Shown in pieces: positions 1-56,400 of a stretch of DNA of 64,000 nt. A program made the position numbers and the translations under genes. The DNA comes from Eledone cirrhosa (Eukaryota). The stretch is from contig OZ024747.1 of assembly GCA_964016885.1 (NCBI GenBank), positions 35,650,001 through 35,714,000 on the forward strand. The letters are read 5' to 3'. Position 1 is the first letter of the stretch; each line of letters begins with the position of its first letter. The notes below the pieces were generated by a model. That model was not told the DNA's origin, did not search any database, and was given only the letters and a program-made list of their open reading frames with translations.

Positions 1-430
1 ATCGTTTTCGGTACGCCGGGCCAACTAACTCACTCGATATGCAAATTAGGCTGCTCAGCCGTTAATATGCATAAGGAAAGCATATACTTCAAACGTTCAA
101 TCAACTGACAGGAAGGTATACGGTGCTGATGACAGCTAATAAGCTAGAAACTAGTTAATCGTTCAAAAGGGCAACGATGGTGGCCGAACAGTGTACGGCT
201 AATAATTCAGGCTGTTTGTTTATAAACAAACCGAGTATTATTATAAATGTTCGATAAACCCATACGTACATATATATATATGTGCATGTATGTATGTATA
301 GACGTACTACTGTACGTCTGTATATATATATGTATGTACGTATACATACTTATATATATATATATATATATATATACGTATACATACTTATATATGCATA
401 TATACATATATGCATATATACACGAAGGCA
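1..430 (+). mobile_element. Non-coding HHR repeat family A (~440-nt unit), copy cut by the window edge
   Basis: Homologous to 6207-7000, 9032-9256(-) and 51460-52160. HHR at 121-161: cggtg CTGATGA cagct-aata-agcta GAAA ctagt t aatcg. Confidence 0.8.
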
Positions 431-3344: not shown

Positions 3345-6160
3345 CATTAACTGTCAGAGAAAACAACAACAAATTCTTGAATACATGTATTTACTGGCTA
3401 ATATCTTGCTTCGGAGACTGAATCATTTATGTGTACATTGATGATATAATTACCGATCTAGAAATCGACAAGTGTATAGTGAAAATAAAAGCATGATTCA
3501 GTACCCTCTAGTACGGCTAGACGTATTATAATTGAGTCCAATGGTAGTTACTGGACTAGGACTATTAGACCAAATAGTTATGACATAACTATGGTATCAA
3601 GTAACTCTGCCCAGGTTACTGACATTGTCGCTATTACATTAGCTTAATGAGGAATTCCCCATCTACAAGGCGGCTTATATTGAGACGATGCGCTATTTAC
3701 TGTAGATAATTCTAACACACGTAGAACAGAGATTCTTAAAAAGCAGTTACATAAATTCTTTAAAAACTTTGGCCTTTCTATCACAATTGAACCTAACTAT
3801 AAAATTATCAACTTTCTTGATAGTACTTTAGACCTTATTACAGAATTATACCGCTCTTATCATAAACCTGCTGAGATCCTAACTTATATTAATCGCCTCT
3901 CAAACCACCTCTTTCCGTTCTTAAATATATTGTAAAGTTCATTTCACACAGAATCTCTAGGCTCTCAGCAAATGAGAATATATTTAATGATATCGCCTGG
4001 TACTATAACGAGGCTCTTTCTAATTCAGGTCATACGGATAAAATGTATTACTTACATTGTGTTCCATCCACACAACAATTATGTAATAATAATTTAATCA
4101 CACAGAGTAGTATCTATAGCAAGAATACATTTAAAAATGCTAATAGAAAAAGCTTTCCTCCTTTTAATGGCCTGTTACCTACTCCTAGCAATAAATTCAG
4201 AGTTAGCTCTATTAGAAAACTTAACCATATGCCTCCTATTAATACTAAGAATACATCCACCACCCTAAAAATTTGAAAAATAATCTAAATTTATTTATAA
4301 ACGCTTCTAATAATCCTCGTGTCATGCACTGTAAGATATCTCATGATGTATCCTGGCTAAATCTATCCTTCTCACTTAATGTTTCTTCTAGCCTCCCTAG
4401 AATGTTTTCTATCCTGCATAATAATATCTCTCCTGACCACACATACTATAATGTTTTGAACAAAACTAACGTTAATATTTCTTTCTTTACCACCCCTAAC
4501 TCAGCCTATTATATTGCCTTTAGTATGCAGAAGGAATTAAATAAGCATATGGTATCCCTTCCTGATGATATACCTCTACCTATCAACCATCTACATACGA
4601 ATAATGTTAACTATAACACCAATCCTATTAACCCTTTAACCTCCTCACCGGTAACTTCTATCTCTGCACCTACGCCTATTTTCTCTACTACTGCTAACTG
4701 TAAATGTAACTGCAGATAGCCTAACAACTGCCCTCTGAATGGGCATTGCCATTTAATAATGTAGTGTATAGATGCACGGTTAAATCAGCAAATGACACAA
4801 AAACTGATATTGGAGCTACCGCTAACCCTTTCAAAACTCGTTTTAATTCTCATACACATTCAATGAGGAATAGTAGCTCAAAATCCTCAACTTCATGTAA
4901 ATGCATTTCAACTCTCCAATATGAAATACTCTCTAGTTTGGGATATTTTAGCCAAATCCTCCCCATACAAAGGACTTAAGAATCATTACGATCCCTGATT
5001 ATCTGAAGCTTATTTCATAACTTTATTTAAACATTGCCCAATTAATAACCGCAATGAGATTGTGTTTAACTACCATCACCGTTCGGCATACACATTCCCT
5101 AACAGGGCTTTTCATCCCACTTAGTTAATTTATTATCTATCCTCCAATATTTTATTATGTGCTCTCTACCCATGCATCATACCCCCATATATTAACTAGT
5201 TAGCCCCTATCTAATTTAAGTTGAACTTATCTCAGTTTTTAACTTATTCTCTCCCACCTTATATTAATACTAATTCCTTGTAGCTCCACTTTTTATATAT
5301 CTGCTTTAATGTGGAACCTTGACCCTTTACCTTACCATCCTATCTGTGGTTATGAACTCTTATTTTTTCATTTTTAATATAATCTTATATTATGCATTAT
5401 TATTTGCACATATCTTTTAACCTAGATATTCCCTATTTAATCTTCTTTAATTATTTTCAATTGTTTTTAGTGCACTCCAAGTAATTCCCATCAATATCAT
5501 TTATTCTTTTTTTAAAGTGAATTCTTATTGATTTGACCTTCATACCTCTATCCAATAATAATCAAATATATTTCTTATACCTCATCATTTGAATCTTTTA
5601 TTTATAATGTATATTTTTTTTTTTACCCCTTCTTATCTTATCATTTTTCTAAAATTATATGTAGTAAACATTTAACTATACATTACTACTAATTTATCTT
5701 CCTTGAATACTAATTATCCCCCTATGACAATCGCAACTCCGGTCACATTTTAATTCTTCTATCAGACCCCCTAATAGCCATGATCCTGGCCACCATAATG
5801 AATGTTCGCCATATATACACTGTTAACAAGCTGATAAATTCTGACCGAGAATTGCCTTTAATGTAGGATTTCTTCTTCAGTGGCATGTATTTATTTTAAA
5901 ATTAATATGTTTAAACCGTTTCTTTTTATTCTAAAGAGGGTATTCAAACATGCATTTATTTTCACTGTACGCTTATCGATTTCTAGATCGGTAATTAAAT
6001 CATAAATGTACAAATGAATTATTCAGTCTCCGAAACAAGTTGTCAGCCAGGAAATATTTGTAGTAAAACATTTGTTGTTTTCTATGAGATTTAATTCATG
6101 CTTTTTAACTTTTCTTATAATACTTTTCTAGGCATATTTCCTTCGAATTACTCGCTGTGT
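3345..6160 (+). mobile_element. Penelope-like element remnant (RT C-terminus + GIY-YIG, pLTR) with inverted 5' pLTR piece
   Basis: Broken frames read INFLD..YRSYHKP..YINR.SNH; WLN.SFS; CKCNCR...CPLNGHC; VVYRCTV..IGATANPFKTRFNSH. Segment 3345-3505 is an inverted copy of about 5935-6090. Confidence 0.85.
5927..6048 (+). ncRNA. Decayed hammerhead ribozyme in pLTR
   Basis: CTAAAGA (G5A) ggg...attcagtctcc GAAAC aagtt GTC; the inverted copy supplies actgaat, which pairs with attcagt. Confidence 0.45.
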
Positions 6161-6996
6161 TAATCGGCCGGGTGCAACGATAACGATAAACGGAAAAAAG
6201 TAAACGATTAACCCACTCGATATGCAAATTAGGCTGCTCGGCCGTTAATATGCATAAGGAAAGTATATACTTTCAGACGTTCAATCATCTGGCAGGAAAC
6301 TATACGTTGCCGACGATAAGTAATAAGCATGAAACTAGTACAGCGTTCCTTTGTCAGTGTTGAACAAACGAGCAACGATGGTTGCTAGACACTGCGGCTT
6401 AATACGGGATGTTTTTTTACAAACACACCGAGCACTATAATAAATGTTCGGTGAATCCATACGTACATATATATATATATATATATGTGTGCATGTATGT
6501 ATATATATATATATACATACTACTGTACGTCTGTATACATATATGTATGTACGTATACATACTTATATTTAAGTAACATCCGTATTAAGAGTGGGAAATT
6601 AAATTTCGTTTCATTTATTCCGTTTATCGTTTTCGGTGCACCCGGCCGATTACCCCACTCGATATACAAATTAGGCTGCTCAGCCGTTAACATGCATAAG
6701 GAAAGTATATACTTTCAGGCGTTCAATCATCTGGCAGGAAGGTATCAGTTGCTGACGATAGCTAATAATCTTGAAACTAGTACTGCGTTCCTTTGTCAGT
6801 GTTGAACAAACGAGCAAGGATGGTTGCTAACACTACGGCTTAATACGGTATGTTTGTTTACAAACACACCTGGCAATATAATAAATGTTCGGTGAATCCA
6901 TACGTACATATATATATATGTGTGCTTGTATGTATATACATATGTATATACATACTACTGTACGTCTGTCTACATATATGTATGTACGTATACATA

Positions 6997-7000
<4 letters not shown>
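6160..7000 (+). mobile_element. Family A tandem dimer with short 5' inversion
   Basis: Two HHR motifs (6305-6345, 6747-6787) whose predicted cleavage nucleotides 6340 and 6782 are 442 nt apart. 6161-6207 is an approximate reverse complement of 6607-6652. Ends in (TA)n. Confidence 0.85.
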
Positions 7001-7050
<50 letters not shown>

Positions 7051-7352
7051 TATATATATATATATATATAAGTCCGACAGACAACATTTTCCCCCACCCC
7101 GGAAAAAACCCCAATTGATGGGTGTGAATGCGAAATATATAGGGACTATTAAAGTCTCCCAAGGTAACTCTCTCTTGTGTTGTTATTTTTATTTTCTCCT
7201 TTATACTCTTCCCTTCATTCTACACATTTCACACATCTTATACACACCATGCATCTCAACGTACACCCACTTACATCTCTCTCTCCACCACCGGACCTTG
7301 TTACCCGGAGATTTACCCATTTGCATTGTCGAGGCTTCCAAACGACTTAAAG

Positions 7353-7593
<241 letters not shown>

Positions 7594-7773
7594 TAATTTA
7601 ATATATCTACTAACATAAGCGCACAGATGTACGCTAATGCCAGCAAATACACAGGTTATGTCATAGTACCTAGGTGGTTCAATGCAGGAGGATGCAGAAC
7701 AATAATATAAAAGACGTAAAATAAGAAAATTTAAAAAAAAAATTAAAAAAAAATTAACTTACTTAAATTTTCA

Positions 7774-7853
7774 CTCAAACTAATTAGTTTCTGCAATGGG
7801 ATAAAGACAGTTACGTAATGAACTGTTGAGAATTTCATTGCGTCATCAGGGAG
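7774..7853 (-). ncRNA. Type I hammerhead ribozyme, family B unit 1
   Basis: ctcc CTGATGA c gcaatg...acagtt/aactgt...cattgc a GAAAC TAATTA GTT tgag. Confidence 0.85.
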
Positions 7854-8312
7854 ATCTATTCTCAGCCAAGTCTCCAGGCAATGCGCGGACACTGGGGTCT
7901 CATATAAAAATAATAATAATTCGGTAAATGGAACAGCTATTGAGGACTGGATTCCAGGCACTGAACATTCTCACTGCCACTGGTCATATGGCCGATTCTA
8001 AAGAATCAATCACGTGACACAGAGGCTAGTCAGTAGGAATGGGATGGTAAGATGACAGACGCCTACTAACACCCCCCAAAAATTTAGAAGTGGTTTTGGC
8101 AGGTTTGCTCGACAAATCAGTGATTTGGAGATAAATATAGATAATTTAATATATCTACTAACATAAGCGCACAGATGTACGCTAATGCCAGCAAATACAC
8201 AGGTTATGTCATAGTACCTAGGTGGTTCAATGCAGGAGGATGCAGAACAATAATATATAAGACGTAAAATAAGAAAATTTAAAAAAAATTAACTTACTTA
8301 CTTAAATTTTCA

Positions 8313-8392
8313 CTCCAACTAATTAGTTTCTACAATGGGATAACGACAGTTAAGTAATGAACTGTTGAGAATTTCATTGCGTCATCAGGTAG
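8313..8392 (-). ncRNA. Type I hammerhead ribozyme, family B unit 2
   Basis: ctac CTGATGA c gcaatg...cattgt a GAAAC TAATTA GTT ggag. Confidence 0.85.
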
Positions 8393-8451
8393 ATCTATTC
8401 TCAGCCAAGTCTCCAGGCAATGCGCGGACACTGGGGACTCATATAAAAATA

Positions 8452-8637
8452 ATAATTGTTTCTACTTTAGGCACAAAGCCAGCAATTACCCAGTGCATTA
8501 CTGGTACTTTATTTTATCGACCCCGTAAGGATGAAAGGCAAAGTCAACCTCGGCGGGATTTGAACTCAGATCGTAAAGGGACGTAACTACGCTGGAAAGC
8601 ATGGTGTCCGACCCTCCACCGATACTGCCAATCCACT
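8452..8637 (-). mobile_element. Full-length Meta-core tRNA SINE inserted in family B unit 2
   Basis: Minus strand: tggcagtatcgg (A-box-like), gagttcaaatccc (B box), gcctttcatccttacggggtcgataaaataaagtaccag, (att)n tail. Absent from unit 1. Confidence 0.9.
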
Positions 8638-9031
8638 TCGGTAAATGGAACAGCTATCGAGGACTGGATTCCAGGCACTGAAAATTCTCAATGCCACTGG
8701 TCATATGGCCGATTCTAAAGAATCAATCACGTGATACAGAGGCTAGTCAGTAGGAATGGGATGGTAAGATGACAGACGCCTACTAACACCCCCCAAAAAT
8801 TTAGAAGTGGTTTTGGCAGGTTTGCTCGACAAATCAGTGATTTGGAGATAAATATAGATAATTTAATATATCTACTAACATAAGCGCACAGATGTACGCT
8901 AATGCCAGCAAATACACAGGTTATGTCATAGTACCTAGGTGGTTCAATGCAGGAGGATGCAGAACAATAATATAAAAGACGTAAAATAAGAAAGTTTAAA
9001 AAAAAAATTTAAAAAAAATTAACTTACTTAA

Positions 9032-9072
9032 ATACAGACGTACATTAGTATGTATATATATATACATACATG

Positions 9073-9109
<37 letters not shown>

Positions 9110-9256
9110 TCCTATATATATATACGTATGGATTCACCGAACATTTCTTATAATGCTCGGCGTGTTTGTAAACAAACATCGCGAATTAAGCCGTACAGTG
9201 TCTAGCAACCATCGTTGCTCATTTGTTCAACACTGACAAATGAACACTGTACTAGT
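9032..9256 (-). mobile_element. Family A partial copy starting at the HHR helix III palindrome
   Basis: Reverse complement matches about 6334-6535; homology stops at actagt 9251-9256. Confidence 0.8.
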
Positions 9257-9649
9257 GTACTTAATATGCGGACGAAACCATGGTCGAGGTAAATAAATGT
9301 GTTCACTTTCTCCTAGTTTATTTTACACCTAATTCTGTTTAATTGACTGTATATCTGGGCGCTGTCGAAATATTCGATAAATATTCCGTCGCAGCCGGCG
9401 CGAAGGGCTGGTTTCGGTTATTTGTTGGAGATTTCTTCATAGAAGCCTTATTCTTATAGCTTGGTCTATTCGATTTTTTATATAGTTAATTATGCTAATT
9501 GGGAGAGGAAATGGTATATATGTTATCTGTGATTCTATAGACATGTTTTATGATATATATATATAACGAAGGAAATGTGGTAAGGAACCAGGTGGACCAT
9601 AACGCACCAAAGTACTCAATACTTGGGGTAGTAGAGTGGTAGTCTGGTT

Positions 9650-11087: not shown

Positions 11088-11122
11088 TCTTCACGTTTCG
11101 GACGTAGTCCTTCGTCAGAAGA
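11088..11122 (-). ncRNA. Minimal hammerhead motif in a solo pLTR-like fragment (G at the cleavage site)
   Basis: tctt CTGACGA a ggac-tac-gtcc GAAACGT G aaga. Confidence 0.75.
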
Positions 11123-11255
11123 AATAATGAGAAATATGAAGGGACGGGCGGGTGTAATTCGAAAAGAAATATATATATCATCATTAGAAAAATAAATATA
11201 TTTTTGTATATATATATATATTTAAAAGAACAGAGGTGTAACACACGAGTTATGA

Positions 11256-11618
11256 TATATTGGTAAAAAGAAAAGAAAATGCTGACAAATTATTCCCAAT
11301 GAAAAATAGTTTAATTAGGAATAAAAGTAAAAATTAGTAATAAGTATTGGTTAGTATTCAGTTTTGGTTTTAAGTTTTTACTGGTTACGCATTTCTAATG
11401 CTTTTCAAAATAATTTTGAGATAGAGCGCCCGTGATGTTTTCTCTAATCTGATTAGAGCAAACATTACGGGCGCTCTATCTCAAAATTATTTTTGAAAAG
11501 CATTAGAAATATGCAAACGGTAAAAACTTAAACGAAAACTGAATACTAACCAATACTTATTACTAATTTTTACTTATTCCTAATTAAACTATTTTCCTTT
11601 TACTTTTACCAATATATA
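11256..11618. repeat. Fold-back palindrome centred at 11450, decayed TTGAAAA-type HHR on each arm
   Basis: ctctaatc-t-gattagag centre; arms of about 150 bp, imperfect. Confidence 0.9.
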
Positions 11619-11638
11619 TATATATATATATTTATATA

Positions 11639-11674
<36 letters not shown>

Positions 11675-11739
11675 AATAACGAAACGAAATTAAATTTCGT
11701 TTCGTTTGTAACTCACTTTTGTATGACTGACGCTTAAAC

Positions 11740-11916
11740 AATTAAGTTAAAAATGTACATCCATATATGTATACTGAAATACTAGTATGCATATGAATAC
11801 ACACACGTATACATATGTAGATGTACCAAGACTTGGTACATCTACATATGTATACGTGTGTGTATTCATATGCATACTAGTATTTCAGTATACATATATG
11901 GATGTACATTTTTAAC

Positions 11917-11922
<6 letters not shown>
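11740..11922. repeat. Perfect 91-bp-arm palindrome, 1-nt loop at 11831
   Basis: gtaccaag-a-cttggtac centre; arms read as exact reverse complements. Confidence 0.95.
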
Positions 11923-11954
<32 letters not shown>

Positions 11955-17389: not shown

Positions 17390-18580
17390 TCACATAGGGA
17401 TATACAAAAAGAAGGAGGAACGTGTATGCGTATGAGATAGTACACGGGAGAAGTATGAGATATACACATCGGCCTGTATACGGAAAATATATGTGTTACA
17501 AAATGGAATACGTGGAGAGTATGGAATCTCTATTGAAAAGATACACATGCATGGGGTGCGTGTACCGGCCATACTGGAGTATTACACTGTGGTTGAGGTA
17601 TATTATCCTATAGGTGTAATGCATTTAACTGAAAGTCAGTGGAATCCGGGTCAACCTGTCCCGGCTCATGCGATGTTCTTGCCTATGGTGACGTACAGAG
17701 ACGGTATTGCATCCTATGTTATTACGGTTTACCCCACGGGGCATATATAGTCATCGGGGTATGGTGTCTGATCCCTTGAATCCGTTTCACTGGTCTGGTC
17801 GGCGTACGCTCCCCCGCATGCATTCAGCCTGGATTTCCCGGTGTATTCCATGTGGAGAGTGTGCACCTTCTCTGGTGCCTGCACGTCATGATTATTTCCG
17901 ATTTCAGGTTGACCGTATCATCCTTCAGTCTGACTATGTCCATGGCCTCGTAAAGGCATAGCCTACACTTTCTATTACCAGCCGAGAATGCATTCGCGTG
18001 CCGAACGATACTCCAGTCAAGGGCATACGGCGTGCCTTTGTCTTTCAAGTCGCATACCAGGTCCGCCAACCTAGTAGAGTGCCCCTGACTCCAGTCCTTG
18101 AAAGAGTTCGTGTGGTTATACATCCGCAATTTAAAGGTTGTGGATGTTGCGCCGATATAGGTGCGCTTTATATTGTGCGTTCTAACCACACATTTATATA
18201 CCAGGCCGTTCGTCAGGCATCATCCCTGCAAGAGGCACTGCGTGTCTGCTCTGCAGTTGCACGTTCTGTAGTTATGTTGTTCATTTCGGACGCCTGGCCA
18301 TTGATCTGCTAGGGCCCTCTCCCGATTCTCAGGGTGTTGTTCCGCTGATACGGTGGTCTCCTCTCCGCCAACCTTTCCCACCCGGTGTTGGATTGTATCG
18401 TCTTCCGCGGCGAGGCGGCCGCCGCGAGGGCTGGGTTGTGGTTGGAAGACCGATCCGCGAGGGACCCTCCGTGCTATGATGGACGGTCATTAAGCCGCTG
18501 CGATTGACGATCGAGGTTCCCCATCTTCGCCGCGTTAGTTTTGGCCATGTAGTCGGCCATGTTAGGTGCTGTGGAGAAGA
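17390..18580 (-). mobile_element. PLE remnant: long linker + GIY-YIG endonuclease + 3' region
   Basis: CNCRADTQCLLQG*CLTNGLVYKCVV...TYIGATSTTFKLRMYNHTNSF...KCRLCLYEA...NLKSEIIMTCRH. Confidence 0.85.

Positions 18581-27199: not shown

Positions 27200-27205
<6 letters not shown>
26545..27205 (+). mobile_element. Non-coding element ending in an HHR and (TA)n
   Basis: Internal short duplications (tgtacccact.acac/acat; atggagatttgac); HHR near the 3' end. The 5' limit is uncertain. Confidence 0.5.
27092..27165 (+). ncRNA. Type I hammerhead ribozyme
   Basis: tcac CTGATGA (helix II aagtgata/tatctctt) GAAAC atgt GTC gtga. Confidence 0.85.
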
Positions 27206-27249
<44 letters not shown>

Positions 27250-27257
<8 letters not shown>

Positions 27258-28842
27258 ATATTTGGGGAGGGTCATATTTGCGTAATATTGCCAGAATTAA
27301 TAACAGAACACACTCACTGTTTGGTTGGTTTTCGCTTCTCGCTGTCTTTTATATATATATATCTGCGATCTAACTTACTCGGTCCTCAATGTTGCCATTG
27401 ACTGACAGGCGGTCAAAAATAATACAGATACAATATAGACACAAACACATATATATAGTTTACATAATTTACATAAATCTTTCGTTGCACATCTGCAACA
27501 TCGTCAGTGGTGTTATATTCATTGTTCCTCCTGTTGTGTTGTATGTCTACGCCATTTTTTTTTTTTGTTCAGTCTGTCTATATATTTATTTATTTATTTG
27601 CTTGTTTGTTTATCTTATTTTATTTTGTCTTCTTTGCGCATGCGTTTGCGTGTGTGTATAGTGTTATGTGTGATGTGTGACTAGTGTGTATAGTGTTGTG
27701 TCTGCTGGGTGACTAGTGTGTGTTTATGTGCTTGTGTATGTATTTATTTATCTTATTTTATTTAATTTTATTTACTTATTTATACTTCTCTTAGGTCAGT
27801 GTTGTTTTTTGGGGTGTTGTTGTTGTTCCACTCATTCTTTCTGTTTAGCTTTGGTCTTCTAATTTCTATTTCACTGGCCTCTCTGATTTGCCTATCTGCT
27901 GGGTCATTCCTATGTTTAGATATTATTCTAATTTCTATGTTGTCTATGTTACCGTCGTGTTGTTGTCTAGCATGTTCGTATAGTACTGACCCGTTTTTTC
28001 GTCCTTTTAGTTCCCCCCAGTGTTGGTCTATCCTTTCACCTATGCTACGAGCTGTCTCACCTATGTATGTTGTTGTCATGTTTCTGCAAGTACCCTCTGT
28101 ACATCTTATGCTATAGACTACGTTTCTGGTTTTACAGTTTATCCGGGGGTTCACCTTACATATGATACATTTCCTATTAGTACAGTGGGTTTTCTTAAAA
28201 GGGTAGGTTTTGCTGATCAGGGATTTTATGGTGGTTCCTGGCTTTTCTACCACCTTTATTTTTAAGTGGGTCTTTCTCAGGGCCTTTCTACACTGGTTAG
28301 CTAATTTCCCTCCAGGGGTGGCATCCACAAACATGACACTCTGATATCTCTGGTTGTCGTACCATGATGTGGCCTTCCCTATCTTATGTCTAGCCCTATC
28401 TAAGCTATTCCATGATTTGCTCCTGTATAGTGGGCAAATTCCTTTCATGTCCAGTTCTATGAGGGTCTTATACTTTTCCATGGCTCCTTCGTATACTCTG
28501 ACTCTGTCTCTTTGGTTGTAGCCAGAGAACTGCATGCGGTTGATGAAGTGTTGGATGTGTCCTTCCATTTCTGTTGGGTCGCACATGCTGGACACATTCT
28601 TCATCACTCGTACCAAATCTGCGATCAGAATATTAAACTTAGCACTACTGGACATTGCTGAGTTTTTGAGTATCAGGTATTTGGAGGCCATGGGTTTAGC
28701 ATAGTGTGAGTGGAGAATTTGGGCTCTCTCGTCTATAGTGTTAATCCAGAGTTCTGTGTCTAATACAGGTAGTCTATTGTTAGGGTGTTTGGAAGGGAAG
28801 TCTATAGTTACAGTTATACTCTGGTGTATGGAATTAGCGATT

Positions 28843-28843
<1 letters not shown>
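27250..28843 (-). mobile_element. 5'-truncated PLE: RT C-terminus/thumb + GIY-YIG + pLTR
   Basis: DFPSKHPNNRLPVLDTELW, YAKPMAS, NVVYSIRC...TYIGETARSIGERIDQH, LNRKNEW. HHR 27470-27511: CTGACGA t gttgca-gatg-tgcaac GAAAGATTTA. Confidence 0.93.
27780..28691 (-). CDS. Uninterrupted 303-aa C-terminal part of a PLE RT/GIY-YIG protein
   Basis: ORF track; Cys linker CTNRKCIIC..C and VVY..YIG motif. Confidence 0.85.
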   Translation of the reverse strand: MASKYLILKNSAMSSSAKFNILIADLVRVMKNVSSMCDPTEMEGHIQHFINRMQFSGYNQRDRVRVYEGAMEKYKTLIELDMKGICPLYRSKSWNSLDRARHKIGKATSWYDNQRYQSVMFVDATPGGKLANQCRKALRKTHLKIKVVEKPGTTIKSLISKTYPFKKTHCTNRKCIICKVNPRINCKTRNVVYSIRCTEGTCRNMTTTYIGETARSIGERIDQHWGELKGRKNGSVLYEHARQQHDGNIDNIEIRIISKHRNDPADRQIREASEIEIRRPKLNRKNEWNNNNTPKNNTDLREV

Positions 28844-30783
<1,940 letters not shown>

Positions 30784-30787
30784 CACT

Positions 30788-32387
30788 CTTAAAGTAGTAC
30801 ACCTTCTAGACGTAACTCTTAATTTAAATACCGGACTGATACGACCCTTCCACAACATAAATGAGAAGCTTACCTATATCAATCTTAACTCAAACCACCC
30901 ACTTTCCATGATCAAATCGGTTTTCCGTAGTATTTCTCTTAGAATCTCTCGCCTATCGTCTGAATGAGATTTTCTGTGAACATGCCGAATACTATAATAA
31001 TCCATTAAGGAATGCCGACCACTTGGATACAATAGAATACATTGATAAGAATCTCCATAACACACATAGCTCTACACGAAATCAAAGAATACGTAACCGG
31101 GGTACATAAATACAAGCGCACACACAAGACATACTAATAATAGAAAAGCATCACCAAATAAATCACGTTGTTGAAAGTATATGTGGTATAATCCCATTTT
31201 TAATGCTTCGATTAGTATAAAACTATCTCTTTCATTCTTTAAGTTAATCAACAAGCATTTCCCTAGTTCCCATAAATACAGTAAAATTCTGAACTCTAAG
31301 ACTATTAAGCTATCATACTCCACTACACAAAACCTTGAAGTATACATTAAAAAAAACTTAACTTAAAGCAATTAATCAACGCTACAAAACAAAATATTTT
31401 AATAACAGATGTGCATAACGTAGTATCGGCCTCCCAACCAGTAAATGGGAGACGGGTATTACACAACCCACATGTACTGTTATCCCAACCTATCCATGGA
31501 ATACCTGCTACCCACAATAAAAACTGTAACTGCCACCTATCTGAAAGATGTCGATTGAAGAATAAATGTCTAAAGTCCAACATCGTTTATCAATGCACTG
31601 TTGAATTGAACGACCTGAAATGGTATTACATCGGGTCTACCACTACCTTCATTAAATTTCGCTGGTATCGTCATCGATTCTCAATTAAACATCATAATCA
31701 CCGTTTTGTGACCACGCTCGCCAACAAGACCTGGCAACTCCGTGAACGCAACCAACAGTTCACCGTGAAATGGTATATACTTTCCAGCGCTAGTGCATAT
31801 CGGAGTGGATTGAAGTACTGCAGGTTATGTAACCTTGAACTCTTTTACATCTTAAAATCCAAAAATAAATTACTAAATGACAGAATCGAACGATCATTAT
31901 ACTGCAACCTCAAACAGAAGGCTAAATTCTCTCACTATTAAATAACTTAACATTCGAACCCGTAACTATAACACTGCTTTCTCGTTAACTACTTTCTCTC
32001 AATAACAACTTCTTAACTGTATCCCCCACACTACAAAACAATACCCGGCTTATCACTATAAATGGATACTTAAGTGCAATTTGTAGCCTACAACTATGAA
32101 CTCAATATACACCTATCCCACAGCTTTCGTCTGCCACTCTCTATCTCTATCTATTCCTCTCTCTCCATCACCCCTCTCTCTCTCTCTCTATCTATCTCTC
32201 GCCCTCGATCCACCTCCCTCCCCTCCACATCTATGAACCTGCCCTTTGTGACAATAAATAATTCCAACCTTAACTATCAACGCATCGCTTAAGGTTGTCG
32301 CTTTAAGAGTAACCAGTATAATAAAACCCTACCACAACATTTTGATTAAGATATCTACAAACCACTCTGTCCCATTTCTCCAGCCCC

Positions 32388-32456
<69 letters not shown>

Positions 32457-33420
32457 CTTTTATTTCTTCCTTTTCTACTCTATCTTCCCCCAATAACCTC
32501 ACTTAAGGGTATTTACATTGTACATTTTAACCATTCTGCTCTGATGATACAGTGGTCACAGCATTTGATAATTGAGTTTGCAAATAGTTATAAATTTGCA
32601 CATAGCATAACTAGGCTGTATAACCACCGTGGAAACATTTGTAAGCACACATAATAAATTACCTTTTTATGATGTCTACCTGTTATTATTCATTCTTTAT
32701 CTACACTCCGGAATACAGAAGGATCAGGAACTAAGTTTCTTCAACTATTCTTCCATAACTCGTTGAGTAACCCCTCACCGTACGTCAACCATATCCAGTG
32801 TAGTAATTAACCATTACTACATCTAGGATAATCCTATACCTAATAATCGCCTCCTGCACAGTTGAGCAACCACACCGACATACGGCAGTAATGTGGAGAG
32901 GCATCATATAGGTATGTCACTTAAAAACACACCTTTACCTAACAGAAGGGAATATATTCTTGGTATGATTCAACGCAATAATGGCTTTATTCGGCGTGTA
33001 CGATGGAAGGCTTTCCATTTCGATAAGGGACACGCCAGTCACTCGTCTGAATCATATGGTTTTAAATCATGTAAAAACCCACCCACAAACCCCCATCTCG
33101 ATGCTTTCGAACAAGACTTAATGAATACGACCATGAATATTAAATTTACCAAACATAGAAGTAATGAGCTGCAGAGCAACATGAAAGCACTACTCCGAAG
33201 ACTGCAAAATATCAATGGAATTGTTGTGAAAGCTGATAAACCTCTAACGTGTATACCATGGGAATCGATACATACAACAGCTTCGTATGCAAAGAACTAC
33301 ACAAGAAATATAGAAAAACAAGTGTAACTACGCTAGCAAACATAAACAACGAGGCATACAAGGTAGTGAAGAATCTCAAGATAGACGATAGAACAGAGCC
33401 GATTATACCCCCCCCCCCCC
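30788..33420 (+). mobile_element. Partial-tandem PLE: 3' half of ORF, pLTR, then 5' start of the next ORF
   Basis: LLDVTLNL..RPFH, WYNPIF, KHFPSSHKY, CNCHLSERC, IVYQC..YYIGST, CRLCNLE; then SLKNTPLP..RRVRWKAF..YGFKS..KADK. Confidence 0.92.
32537..32647 (+). ncRNA. Type I hammerhead ribozyme with extended helix II in pLTR
   Basis: tgct CTGATGA tacagtggt/accaccgtg, acagc/gctgt, tgcaaat/atttgca, GAAAC attt GTA agca. Confidence 0.88.
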
Positions 33421-41818: not shown

Positions 41819-41905
<87 letters not shown>

Positions 41906-41954
41906 TATGCCCTTATACATTTTTTCACGCAGACTCGCACATTCATTCTTACAC

Positions 41955-41991
<37 letters not shown>

Positions 41992-41994
<3 letters not shown>

Positions 41995-43490
41995 CGTTTC
42001 TGAATTTGTTTAGCAAGATTCTTTATCTGAAATCGTGTGTTGAAACCGATATTGTTATACTTTGGGAGGGTCATGTTGCCAATAAGAAACACACGCACCA
42101 GTAGCTTTCACTTCAATTTATTATAATAAATTTATAATAAATTTATAAATTTATTTATAAATTTCTGGTTAGTTGGTTGGTTCCACAACCAGATAGTTGT
42201 TTATATATTGTCATAGTTCTTTCGTCACACACTATGTGACCTCTTCAGTGACTGGGGTTTCCTTTCTTTGTTTTTGTGCCTCTCCTTTGTTCTGTCCTAC
42301 GCCATTTTGTTTCCGTGTGTGTGTTGTGTGCTCAGTCTGCGCATGCGCCACATCCGTGTGTCTGTGTGTGTTTATGTTCATTTATTTATTTGTTTATTTA
42401 CATGTTACTGGTTGGTTGTTTGTTCTATGTGTGTGTGTGTTTTCATTTTGTCCTTAATTGTAAGTTGTGATGTTGCTGTTCCACTCATATTTTCTATTTA
42501 ATTTTGGTTGTAATTCTTTTATGTTTATTGCCTCTGTGATTTGTCTAAACATTGCGTCTTTTCTGTGTGTAGATTCAATTTTTATTTCTATGTTCTCTAA
42601 TTTACCCTTGTGTTCTATTTTAGCATGCTGGTAGAGTACAGATGATTCTTTACTATCTTGAAGGTCTCGCCAGTGTTCATTTATCCGTTCCCCTACACTA
42701 CGAGCTGTCTCACCTATGTACACTATATTTTTGTATATACATTGTCCCTCAGTACATCTTATGCTATACACTACATTTCTAGTTTTACAGTTAATATGGG
42801 GGCTTATTTTACAGGTTATACATTTCTTATCTATACATGAGGGTATTTTAAAAGGGTATGTATTGCTAATATGTGTTTTTACGGAGGTACCTGGTCTTTC
42901 TACTATCTTAATATTGAGTTTATGTTTATCTAGGGCCCTTCTAAATTTGTAAGCTAATTCACCTCTAGGGGTTGTATCGATGAACATTACACTCTGGTAT
43001 TTTTTTGCTATCATACCATGAGTTTATTCTATTAGCCTTGTTCCTAGTTCTTTCTATTCTATTCCAAAATTTGCTCCTATACAAGGGGCAGGTCCCATTT
43101 ATGTCATTATTTACCATTTTTTACATTTGGTTCTGGCTCCTCTATACACTCTTATTTTATCTCTCTGATTGTAGCCAGAGAACTGCATACGGTGGATGAA
43201 GTGTTGTATGTGTCTCTCTAGTTCTTCGGGCTTGCACATGCGGGACACGTTTCTCATCACCCGTACCACATCTGCAATCAGTATGTTGATTTTGGTATGA
43301 TCCGAAACGGCCGAGTTTCGGTGGATCAGATGTTTGGAAGTCATGGGTTTGGCATAATGGGAATGGAGGATTTGTTTTTTGTTATTAATGGTATCTAACC
43401 AGAGCTCTGTGTCTAGTACAGGTAATCGATGGTTGGGGTGTTTACTTGGGTAGTCTATAGTAACTCTAATATTCTGGTGGATGGAGTTAT
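41992..43490 (-). mobile_element. 5'-truncated PLE, paralogue of 27250-28843
   Basis: DYPSKHPNHRLPVLDTELW, NVVYSIRC..VYIGETARSVGERINEH, LNRKYEW; frameshifts present. Confidence 0.93.
42210..42252 (-). ncRNA. Minimal hammerhead ribozyme in pLTR
   Basis: gtca CTGAAGA g gtcaca-tagtg-tgtgac GAAAG aa CTA tgac. Confidence 0.88.
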
Positions 43491-43763
43491 AATGAAATAG
43501 TATGATAGAATATTAAATTCTAAGTGTTAATTGAACAAGTACTTTCATGCTTTCGCAATCTTCAGGTTCATGATATGTGGTGACAGTCGAGTTTGCAATT
43601 TTCAACTGTAATGAGATGGGTAAATTTACTACCTTTTATACATTTTATACAGAGAAAAGTGGCTCCAGAATGCAAAGCCCTGTAGACACACACACACACA
43701 CACATATATATATCTATATATCTATATATATCTATATATATATATCTATATCTATATATATCT

Positions 43764-51459: not shown

Positions 51460-51462
<3 letters not shown>

Positions 51463-52162
51463 TATGTATGTATACGTACATACATATATGTATACAGACG
51501 TGCATTAGCATGTACATATATACATACAGGCACATATATATATATATATGCACGTAAACTGTATCGTGCATATATATATATGTGTGCCTGTATGTATATA
51601 TATATATACATGCTACTGTACGTCTGTATACATATATGTATGTACGTATATATACATACTTACATTTAAGTAAGTGCCGTACTAAGAGTGAGAAATGAAA
51701 TTTCGTTTCATTCTATTCCATTTATCGTTTTCGGTGCGCCTGGCCGACTGAACTCACTCGATATGCAACTTAGGCTGCTCAGCCGTTAATTTTCATAAGG
51801 AAAGTATATACTTTCGGACGTTCAACCATCTGGCAGAAAGGTATACGGTGCTGACGATAGCTAATAAGCTTGAAACTAGTACATCGTTCCTGTGTCAGTG
51901 TTGAACAAAAAGGTGACGTGGTTGCCTTAACACCGTACGGCGTAATTCAGGCTGTTTGTTTACAAACGAACAAACCGAGCACTATAATAAATGTTCGGTA
52001 AACTGATACGTGCATCTATATATGTGTGCCTGTATGTATATATATACATGCTACTGTACGTCTGTATACATATATGTATGTACGTATACATACATACTTA
52101 CATTTAAGTAAGTGCCGTTCTAAGAGTGAGAAATGAAATTTCGTTTCATTCTATTCCATTTA
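51460..52162 (+). mobile_element. Family A, terminally redundant copy (period 438)
   Basis: tacatttaagtaagtgccgt at 51661 and 52099; short inverted piece at about 51460-51530; between (TA)n tracts. Confidence 0.85.
51846..51886 (+). ncRNA. Intact minimal hammerhead ribozyme, family A
   Basis: cggtg CTGACGA t agct-aata-agct t GAAAC ta GTA catcg. Confidence 0.9.
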
Positions 52163-52180
52163 TATATATATATATATATA

Positions 52181-55602: not shown

Positions 55603-56400
55603 GCATATTTTCAACGAACATTCCACATATTACAATGACGTTCTTGCTAGGAGTGGATTTGTCGATAAGGTAGCATATACAGAGTACGAGAATTGACCTA
55701 GAAGAGATACATCCTGACGCATTATATGGTATAACTCACCATATAATATAGAGGTGGCCATACCATTAGCTAAGATCTTTCTATCTTTTATTACGAAGCA
55801 TTTTTCCCCCTACACATAAATATAGTAACATTTTTAATAGAAATACTATTAAAACTTCTTACTCTATGACTCCTAACCTTACACATAACATCACAGCTTC
55901 AAATTTAGCTAAACTACCTAGCCATAGGAACACGTGCAACCCTGTAGTTAGTACTAACGGTAATTGTAGGAATCGGGTTGATTGCCCCCTATACGGGAAA
56001 TGCCTCTCTAGTAACATTGTCTACAAATGTAATGTTGAAACACCCACGTCCCGTAGGGCCTAAATAGGGTTAACCGCCAATAGATTCAAGCAGCGTCTTT
56101 ACATGCATACCCATTCTTTTCGTTACCTTTTAAGAAGGAATATAACGTAATTTTCAGCTTATATCTGGAGTCTAAAAGACAACCACACCGAATATAAATT
56201 ACAGTGGGAGATCCTGGCTAGAGCTAGATCGTATAACGGAAATAAAAGACCATGTGACCTCTGCGCCGCTGAGGCCCTGGAAATACTCTACGCCACAGAC
56301 CACATCTTAAACAAAAATCTGAGGCAATTTCGGCTTGCAAACAAAAATTGCACAAAACTTTCCTGTATTACAGCCCCACATTAAACCCTAACGGATAGTA
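55602..56400 (+). mobile_element. PLE remnant, thumb + GIY-YIG
   Basis: IIWYNSPY, KHFSP.HKYSNIFNRNTIKTSYS, NCRNRVDCPLYGKCLSSNIVYKC, *IGLTANRFKQR, CDLCAAE. Confidence 0.88.

Follow-up and report, generated by a model that had tools for sequence, protein, structure and literature searches.

The window, i.e., the whole stretch of 64,000 nt of Eledone cirrhosa DNA analysed here, carries several copies of a repeat, family A, that is dispersed across the genome and that we assign to the non-LTR retrozymes. We put at about 0.8 the probability that this retrozyme is moved by PLE machinery. The original prediction had proposed both the class and the PLE link. The former is borne out by the non-coding tandem unit with one type I hammerhead, by the thousands of short arrays, and by the lack of an RT ORF in the sampled copies; the latter, given two fixed ends, inverted arms, and TA targets, comes out stronger than had been supposed. 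By an arginine kinase exon of the genome, 88% identical to that of Octopus bimaculoides, 85% to Argonauta, and 62-72% to bivalves and gastropods, the host is octopod-like. Family A extends to cephalopods a class of elements that was itself already known, and our literature search (open papers, their supplements lying outside its scope) found, as anticipated, no description of a cephalopod retrozyme.

The family A unit and its copies in the window

We counted exact matches to four patterns in the 3.0-Gb genome, all four counts being lower bounds: 12,161 for a 30-nt hammerhead core, 27,161 for the sequence directly 3' of the cut site, 10,307 for the head-to-tail junction, and 17,487 for the tail hairpin. 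Every reversed control gave 0 and, with 12,161 core matches against none, family A is far more abundant than chance allows. Copies were read in three samples: the window and the loci at which contig C1 has its first 100 core matches, duplicates being dropped (sample 1); 29 loci from the second pattern (sample 2); and the 29 best matches to the young copy at 51.7 kb (sample 3). These sampled loci, designated below by L-numbers, represent a few hundred copies among tens of thousands, mostly from one chromosome arm.

The unit measures about 420-500 nt (430 nt in the commonest alignment frame) and is numbered from the base after the long end described below, with window positions 51726-52163 (438 nt) as reference. 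An arm holds from a fraction of one unit up to 7.5 units. Among 82 full units, we distinguished five subfamilies with at least three full units each, whose members lie 1.3-2.7% from their own majority sequence; a further sister subfamily stands at about 70% identity. The absence of an ORF noted originally holds in that none is conserved: the longest ATG frame measures 43 aa in the 51.7-kb unit; in the monomer of the focal insertion (6160-7000), it reaches 106 aa and crosses TA repeats. Family A thus has the short head-to-tail tandem unit without protein coding of non-LTR retrozymes, and one further feature of this class is found at loci L063, L144, L158, and L163 and is missing from the 6160-7000 dimer. 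The unit RNA is strongly self-paired, with a GC content of 0.38 and circular fold z-scores of -8.4 and -6.9 against 20 shuffles, to which the TA hairpin contributes a large share.

Table 1. Family A copies, predicted hammerheads, and target tract in the window (positions from its first nucleotide)
Feature	Position	Strand	Remarks
Older-subfamily copy (GUU triplet, C.A at helix II base)	1..352	+	short end at 352
Short inverted arm	6161..6207	-	47 nt; unit ~415-430 plus 1-26; outer end at neither fixed end
Unit 1, 5'-truncated (unit ~20-430), head-to-tail into unit 2	6205..6627	+	
Type I hammerhead 1	6286..6360	+	predicted cut after 6340; damaged
62-nt 'tail' between short and long fixed ends, with hairpin	6566..6627	+	
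Unit 2 (unit 1-~368), ends at short fixed end	6628..7000	+	93% identity to unit 1
Type I hammerhead 2	6728..6802	+	predicted cut after 6782; damaged
3' target tract, (TA)n	7001..7070	.	
Partial copy, starts in helix III; head-to-head with other repeat at 9257-9565	9032..9256	-	
Inverted arm ending at short end (51460)	51460..51556	-	
Main arm, ~1.4 units, young subfamily; long end 52163, then (TA)n	51539..52163	+	
Intact type I hammerhead	51827..51901	+	predicted cut after 51881 (GUA)

The four copies originally placed at 1-430, 6160-7000, 9032-9256, and 51460-52162 are all present there, and two of them have a more elaborate layout than described (Table 1). The 'dimer' at 6160-7000 is a tandem, though of about 1.8 units (6205-7000) with a 47-nt inverted arm, and the 51.7-kb copy is a two-armed insertion (51460-52163) with one hammerhead. 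The proposed spacings are exact: H17 falls at 6340 and 6782, 442 nt apart, and the 438-nt period at 51.7 kb runs from 51725 to 52163. A hammerhead had been announced in each full unit; the motif is there, with H17 at 6340, 6782, and 51881, but both focal ribozymes are damaged. The first carries U4C and has three of its four helix II pairs broken (fold z +0.4), the second has lost three of six helix I pairs and one of four helix II pairs (fold z -0.2), and both fold no better than shuffled sequences. Hence, the C in the reported 'C(T/C)GA' reflects decay and not family variation, and the focal insertion is probably dead. The hammerhead at 51827-51901 keeps its core and all 13 pairs tested. Of the two remaining copies, the one at 1-352 has its start upstream of the window (locus L113), and the one at 9032-9256 has no whole hammerhead because it begins inside helix III.

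The hammerhead and its conservation as RNA

The family A hammerhead possesses a helix I of 6 bp, beyond which come an internal loop, with UAU facing U, and another, long stem; a helix II of 4 bp over a U.U (or C.A) mismatch, closed by an AAYA loop; and a helix III made of a single A-U pair with a palindromic tetraloop (loop 3). The cleavage triplet is GUA, or GUU in older copies. It had been described as minimal, a description that we correct. According to the accessible text of PMC4209133, a min-HHR has a helix II of 7-8 bp, a helix I of 4-5 bp, a loop 1 that is ill-defined, and a single unpaired base 5' of helix II. With its 6-bp helix I, 4-bp helix II, and conserved internal loop and loop 2, the family A ribozyme is by these definitions of the canonical metazoan type I. 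Hammerheads of this type are expected to act as dimers (same text), and self-cleavage of family A transcripts, as dimers, would be expected.

Several comparisons point to selection on the RNA. We aligned 117 hammerhead regions, two from window copies and 115 from a set of 142 distinct ones, of which 27 were set aside as near-duplicates or truncated. Pairing holds in 93.8% of cells, and in 107 of 116 rows a pair of helix I alternates between U.G, G.U, and A-U; the conservation of core and helix II in this set is partly due to the copies having been selected on the core. When copies are instead chosen by sequence outside the core, 94 of the first 98 contain the hammerhead region, and 78 of these have core, helices, and palindrome intact. 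When family A is compared with its 70% sister and two other tandem families (14 rows, one without the 5' side), 9 of 13 hammerhead pairs change on both sides, with core, internal loop, and loop 2 constant. These double-sided changes occupy 32 cells, against at most 5 when the alignment is slid, for a list of sister families that rests on the first relaxed hammerhead pattern and may miss others. Around the whole unit, as examined in 27 of the 82 full units, double-sided changes affect 8 of 107 consensus pairs, some of them in the long-range helices flanking the tail. Since related sequences can mimic covariation, these counts are support and not proof. They agree with the earlier remark that helix I varies while keeping its pairing, which we observe across subfamilies and sister families.

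The G.U-rich, strand-specific character of this covariation and the conserved catalytic core speak against a DNA-level repeat, i.e., a satellite or a foldback/MITE spread by recombination or DNA transposition, in which the hammerhead would be incidental. Some arrays (L063) do show recent local duplication, and inverted arms resemble terminal inverted repeats, but the one-sided fixed ends, ragged 5' ends, and unequal arm ends described below do not fit such a repeat. We consider this explanation largely refuted and extremely improbable.

Rfam returned for the 51.7-kb copy Hammerhead_HH9 only, below the cut-off (16 bits vs 52, E 0.11), and no hammerhead match for the focal dimer. Over the whole window, 162 matches were obtained at E<=1; there is no hammerhead among the 150 matches listed, almost all of which are miRNA-like hairpins in TA repeats.

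Family A sequence is present in RNA, partly by read-through. The unlabelled run X5, coded as the same organism as the DNA-like runs that best contain the unit, covers the arginine kinase exons and not a 104-nt intron, with loose ends matching exon-exon joins, and thus behaves as spliced RNA; run X1 runs through the upstream arginine kinase intron. All 29 of 29 bins of the unit are covered by X5 contigs. Three of these contigs pass from the long end into the TA flank and therefore derive, at least partly, from read-through of genomic copies. Strand, ends, size, and circularity lie beyond the reach of such contigs. Close family A copies also occur in run X6, coded as another organism. Run X4 yielded no contig on the unit, and neither X4 nor X6 any on the control exons, gaps to which we give no weight.

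Insertion ends and the search for an autonomous partner

In sample 1, 104 of the 120 arms end at one of two fixed points about 62 nt apart: the short end, after TACTTA (51 arms), and the long end, after CC(A/G)TTTAT (53 arms), both nearly always followed by TA-rich DNA. The 16 other arms end elsewhere, several through visible deletions, and the inverted arm of the focal insertion likewise ends at no fixed site. Two-armed head-to-head insertions number 64 in the three samples, 11 of them with one unclassifiable end. Among the 53 that can be classified, 51 combine one short and one long end, one has two short ends, and one has two long ends, where independent ends would give about half mixed.

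Accessible portions of two papers describe as PLE marks a truncated copy in inverted orientation and a tail borne by one of the ends (10.1101/2021.04.23.441226), the tail being the stretch between two internal RT start sites, with both strands cut (PMC11167929). Fixed 3' ends, a tail on one end, an inverted 5'-truncated arm, and a microsatellite target are all found in family A insertions. The same genome offers a control, in that two families of Neptune-like PLEs also end in (TA)n at two points, separated by about 56-58 nt, and their two-armed copies at L019, L068, and L102, read by eye, have one end of each kind in three cases out of three.

The 5' ends are ragged. We looked among 98 copies for a 5'-end pile-up at the predicted cut site and found none, a single copy stopping there. 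A cluster of 5' ends at unit 117-129 in sample 1 was discarded, being confounded by selection on the core, as were eighteen 'stops at 427', which are alignment artefacts of a variant tail. Since 5' ends ignore the cut site and reverse transcription reads through it, the template is either a circle or an uncut multimer.

Since these ends, like the tail, the inversion, and the targeting of TA tracts, belong to the traits of PLEs, the unit could also be the pseudo-LTR (pLTR) of a rare autonomous PLE, its copies being truncated debris. Many Xenopus retrozymes match pLTRs (10.64898/2026.07.22.740005, accessible text), and our sample covers a few hundred copies out of tens of thousands, mostly on one chromosome arm. 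On the contrary, wherever an arm exceeded one unit, it continued into the preceding unit; exact head-to-tail junctions number 10,307, an arm may hold up to 7.5 units, and subfamily covariation extends round the whole unit; moreover, PLE pLTR hammerheads are of the minimal type in the accessible part of PMC4209133, whereas that of family A is canonical. Constant attachment of the unit to an RT ORF elsewhere had been named as a refutation of the retrozyme, and an RT plus GIY-YIG ORF between family A repeats was found in none of the sampled copies. We judge this origin of present-day copies very unlikely; an ancestral derivation of the unit from a pLTR is possible, even if no copy bears the ORF.

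The PLE frames of the window match many loci, never in register upstream of a family A arm, and no PLE ORF in register was seen in the 30 loci examined out of 39 with a related hammerhead pattern. No partner sharing the 3' or tail sequence appeared in four PLE families and 30 sister-hammerhead loci. In a survey of the tail hairpin at 30 loci (four rows re-read by eye), it is followed by the next unit in 14 and by a TA-rich flank in 16. Head-to-head junctions without a TA spacer occur at window 9257-9565, L055:999-1276, L083:2067-2232, and L061:1800-2408; they involve four different partner elements, two of which are truncated inside their own hammerhead, and are possibly hybrid insertions or deletions between neighbours. 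As clues to the helper, those at window 9256/9257, L055, and L083 are not decisive, with three different elements, and the GIY-YIG fragment at L061 was rejected: its PLE family is an abundant one, of which the other copies end at different places and have nothing in common with family A. As helper, a Neptune-type PLE is our guess, from the target and the tail length.

Pfam named none of the PLE frames above its cut-off, and the term 'Neptune-like' therefore rests on a cysteine linker together with a C-terminal GIY-YIG recognized by inspection. In the window, 3' fragments of this kind, with GIY-YIG frames and two alternative ends, lie at 27204-28880 and 41900-43512 (minus), with minimal-type hammerheads at 27507 and 42248. 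Fragments of another abundant PLE type, which we take to be 'Hydra-like', are found at 3893-4871, 17824-18219, 31351-33327, and 56001-56312; a related endonuclease piece gave 53,858 first-look candidates.

The template and its possible mode of copying

For a retrozyme moved by a PLE, we lean slightly towards a circle as template. At loci L144 and L163, arms of 6-7 near-identical units share rare variants on both arms. Variants that occur in no more than 2 of the 143 insertions count here as rare; their sharing per site is 0.0024 inside an arm, 0.0015 from one arm to the other, and 0.00002 from one insertion to another, this last rate being limited by the definition and the control partly circular. 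Rare variants are common to both arms in 10 of 33 two-armed insertions; in the young set, they are shared at 3 of 3,627 sites within arms and at 0 of 2,996 across, a low number that speaks against a simple monomer circle.

The template could instead be an uncut multimeric transcript of tandem source loci, inserted by the PLE in the same way, with the hammerhead kept for another step. Mixed-subfamily arms (L105, L066) and an A-B-A-B alternation (L063) oppose a single monomer circle, which would need template switching or later recombination to produce them. The indifference of 5' ends to the cut site and the read-through contigs of the RNA-like run X5 also suit a multimer, as do two published results, in the text accessible to us: hammerhead mutants had no effect on anole PLE insertion in vitro (PMC11167929), and 1 of 9 Xenopus dimers was cleaved (10.64898/2026.07.22.740005). 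An uncut multimer accounts less well for the 78 copies out of 94 that keep core, helices, and palindrome intact, for a hammerhead rebuilt with new sequence in sister families, for the long arms of L144 and L163, and for the abundant circles that related elements yield (PMC7229834, accessible part). We hold it to be a serious possibility, with the odds against it. L105 was also considered as evidence for a ligated heterodimer and rejected, its subfamily switch lying between unit 221 and 397 and not at the cut site.

For the circle, we tentatively propose a coupled two-strand rolling-circle reverse transcription, in which one PLE dimer would copy one ligated circle from two obligatorily different start sites; we rate this full scheme a little short of even odds. 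Transcripts of tandem copies would self-cleave as hammerhead dimers via the palindromic loop 3, and a host ligase would close the resulting monomers into a one-unit RNA circle. A PLE protein, most likely of Neptune type, would bind the structured region around the tail, nick both strands of a TA tract, and start reverse transcription internally, the short site priming one strand and the long site the other. On each strand, reverse transcription would pass the cleavage junction and could extend over several units; a head-to-head joining of both truncated ends would follow. If this scheme is true, tens of thousands of octopus loci record Penelope copying of ribozyme circles. The enzyme that mobilizes animal retrozymes and the use of circles as templates are questions left by PMC7229834, PMC7761336, and 10.64898/2026.07.22.740005, as far as their accessible text goes; with RT start sites mapped, a one-short/one-long rule, and a PLE control in the same genome, both the PLE helper and the rolling circle are directly testable.

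Known relatives and neighbouring hammerhead repeats

The non-LTR retrozymes of coral, Mytilus (350-390 bp), and axolotl (Rtz331/Rtz353), as presented in the consulted part of PMC7229834, likewise consist of a non-coding unit in tandem that bears a single canonical type I hammerhead; they show the same strong self-pairing (GC being 38% in family A), thousands of copies, and PLEs in the same genome. Among the axolotl ribozymes there, HHR_Amex1 has, like family A, a 1-bp helix III with a palindromic tetraloop, and HHR_Amex2 a U.U at the base of helix II. Family A differs by its longer unit (420-500 nt), its long TA hairpin, and its cephalopod host; circles have been shown for the retrozymes of that paper, whereas those of family A are putative. 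In the accessible main texts of PMC7229834 and 10.64898/2026.07.22.740005, the PLE link is drawn from shared hammerheads, co-occurrence, and pLTR homology, and we found there no description of fixed ends, tail, or two-armed insertions. The survey of the latter, on vertebrates, covers 35 species and no molluscs, as far as its available text indicates. In the giant squid genome paper, 235 Rfam hammerhead loci are counted (PMC6962438, accessible text).

Neptune, Poseidon, and Naiad PLEs, in the portions available of PMC8557442, PMC11167929, and PMC4209133, share with family A partial tandems, an inverted 5'-truncated arm, a tail at one end, AT or microsatellite targets, and an internal RT start. 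They differ from it by their RT/GIY-YIG ORF, a tail of 30-40 nt vs about 62 nt, and a minimal vs canonical hammerhead, and family A shares no sequence with the PLE families examined. The Chlamys MRC1-type elements (PMC8557442, same portions) are likewise non-autonomous PLE dependants with multicopy head-to-tail insertions; these elements of green algae share 3' sequence with autonomous partners, whereas for family A no such partner was found at the loci examined.

Other hammerhead families occur at the sampled loci and in the window. A second tandem family, two-armed and with a 310-nt period (L163:6390-7700; L067:200-1400; L096:1100-1500), has helices unrelated to those of family A and the same loops and U.U mismatch. 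At L060:1533-1700, the 5' end of a family A arm abuts a same-orientation repeat resembling this 310-nt family, possibly by a template switch between retrozymes. A third family (window 11660-11925; L079:2884-3440; L054:1984-2297) is about 70% identical over the TA hairpin and tail and has its own hammerhead, with loop 3 as in family A; in the window, it is two-armed with unequal ends. The older sister subfamily, about 70% identical to family A (around 1500 in L198, L202, L205, L206, L210, L211, and L221), differs in its palindromic loop 3 and in helices I and II, where compensatory changes have replaced the sequence. Hammerhead-like cores that stand alone, sharing loop 2 and having a palindromic loop 3 but divergent flanks, lie around 1500 in L195, L196, L199, L201, L203, L207, L208, L212-L215, L217-L220, and L223, several of them on contig C10; no tandem or PLE context was seen for them.

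In the window, a tandem repeat with a period of about 545-750 nt and a SINE-like insert (7594-9032) lies directly upstream of the 9032 copy, and its minus strand has two CUGAUGA...GAAA motifs, at 7849 and 8388. At 11165-11600, another TA-flanked repeat forms a foldback insertion whose two inverted arms are long. Other repeat families have minimal-type hammerhead motifs at 11118(-), 39069(-), 40005(+)/39823(-), 43565(-), and 16510(+).
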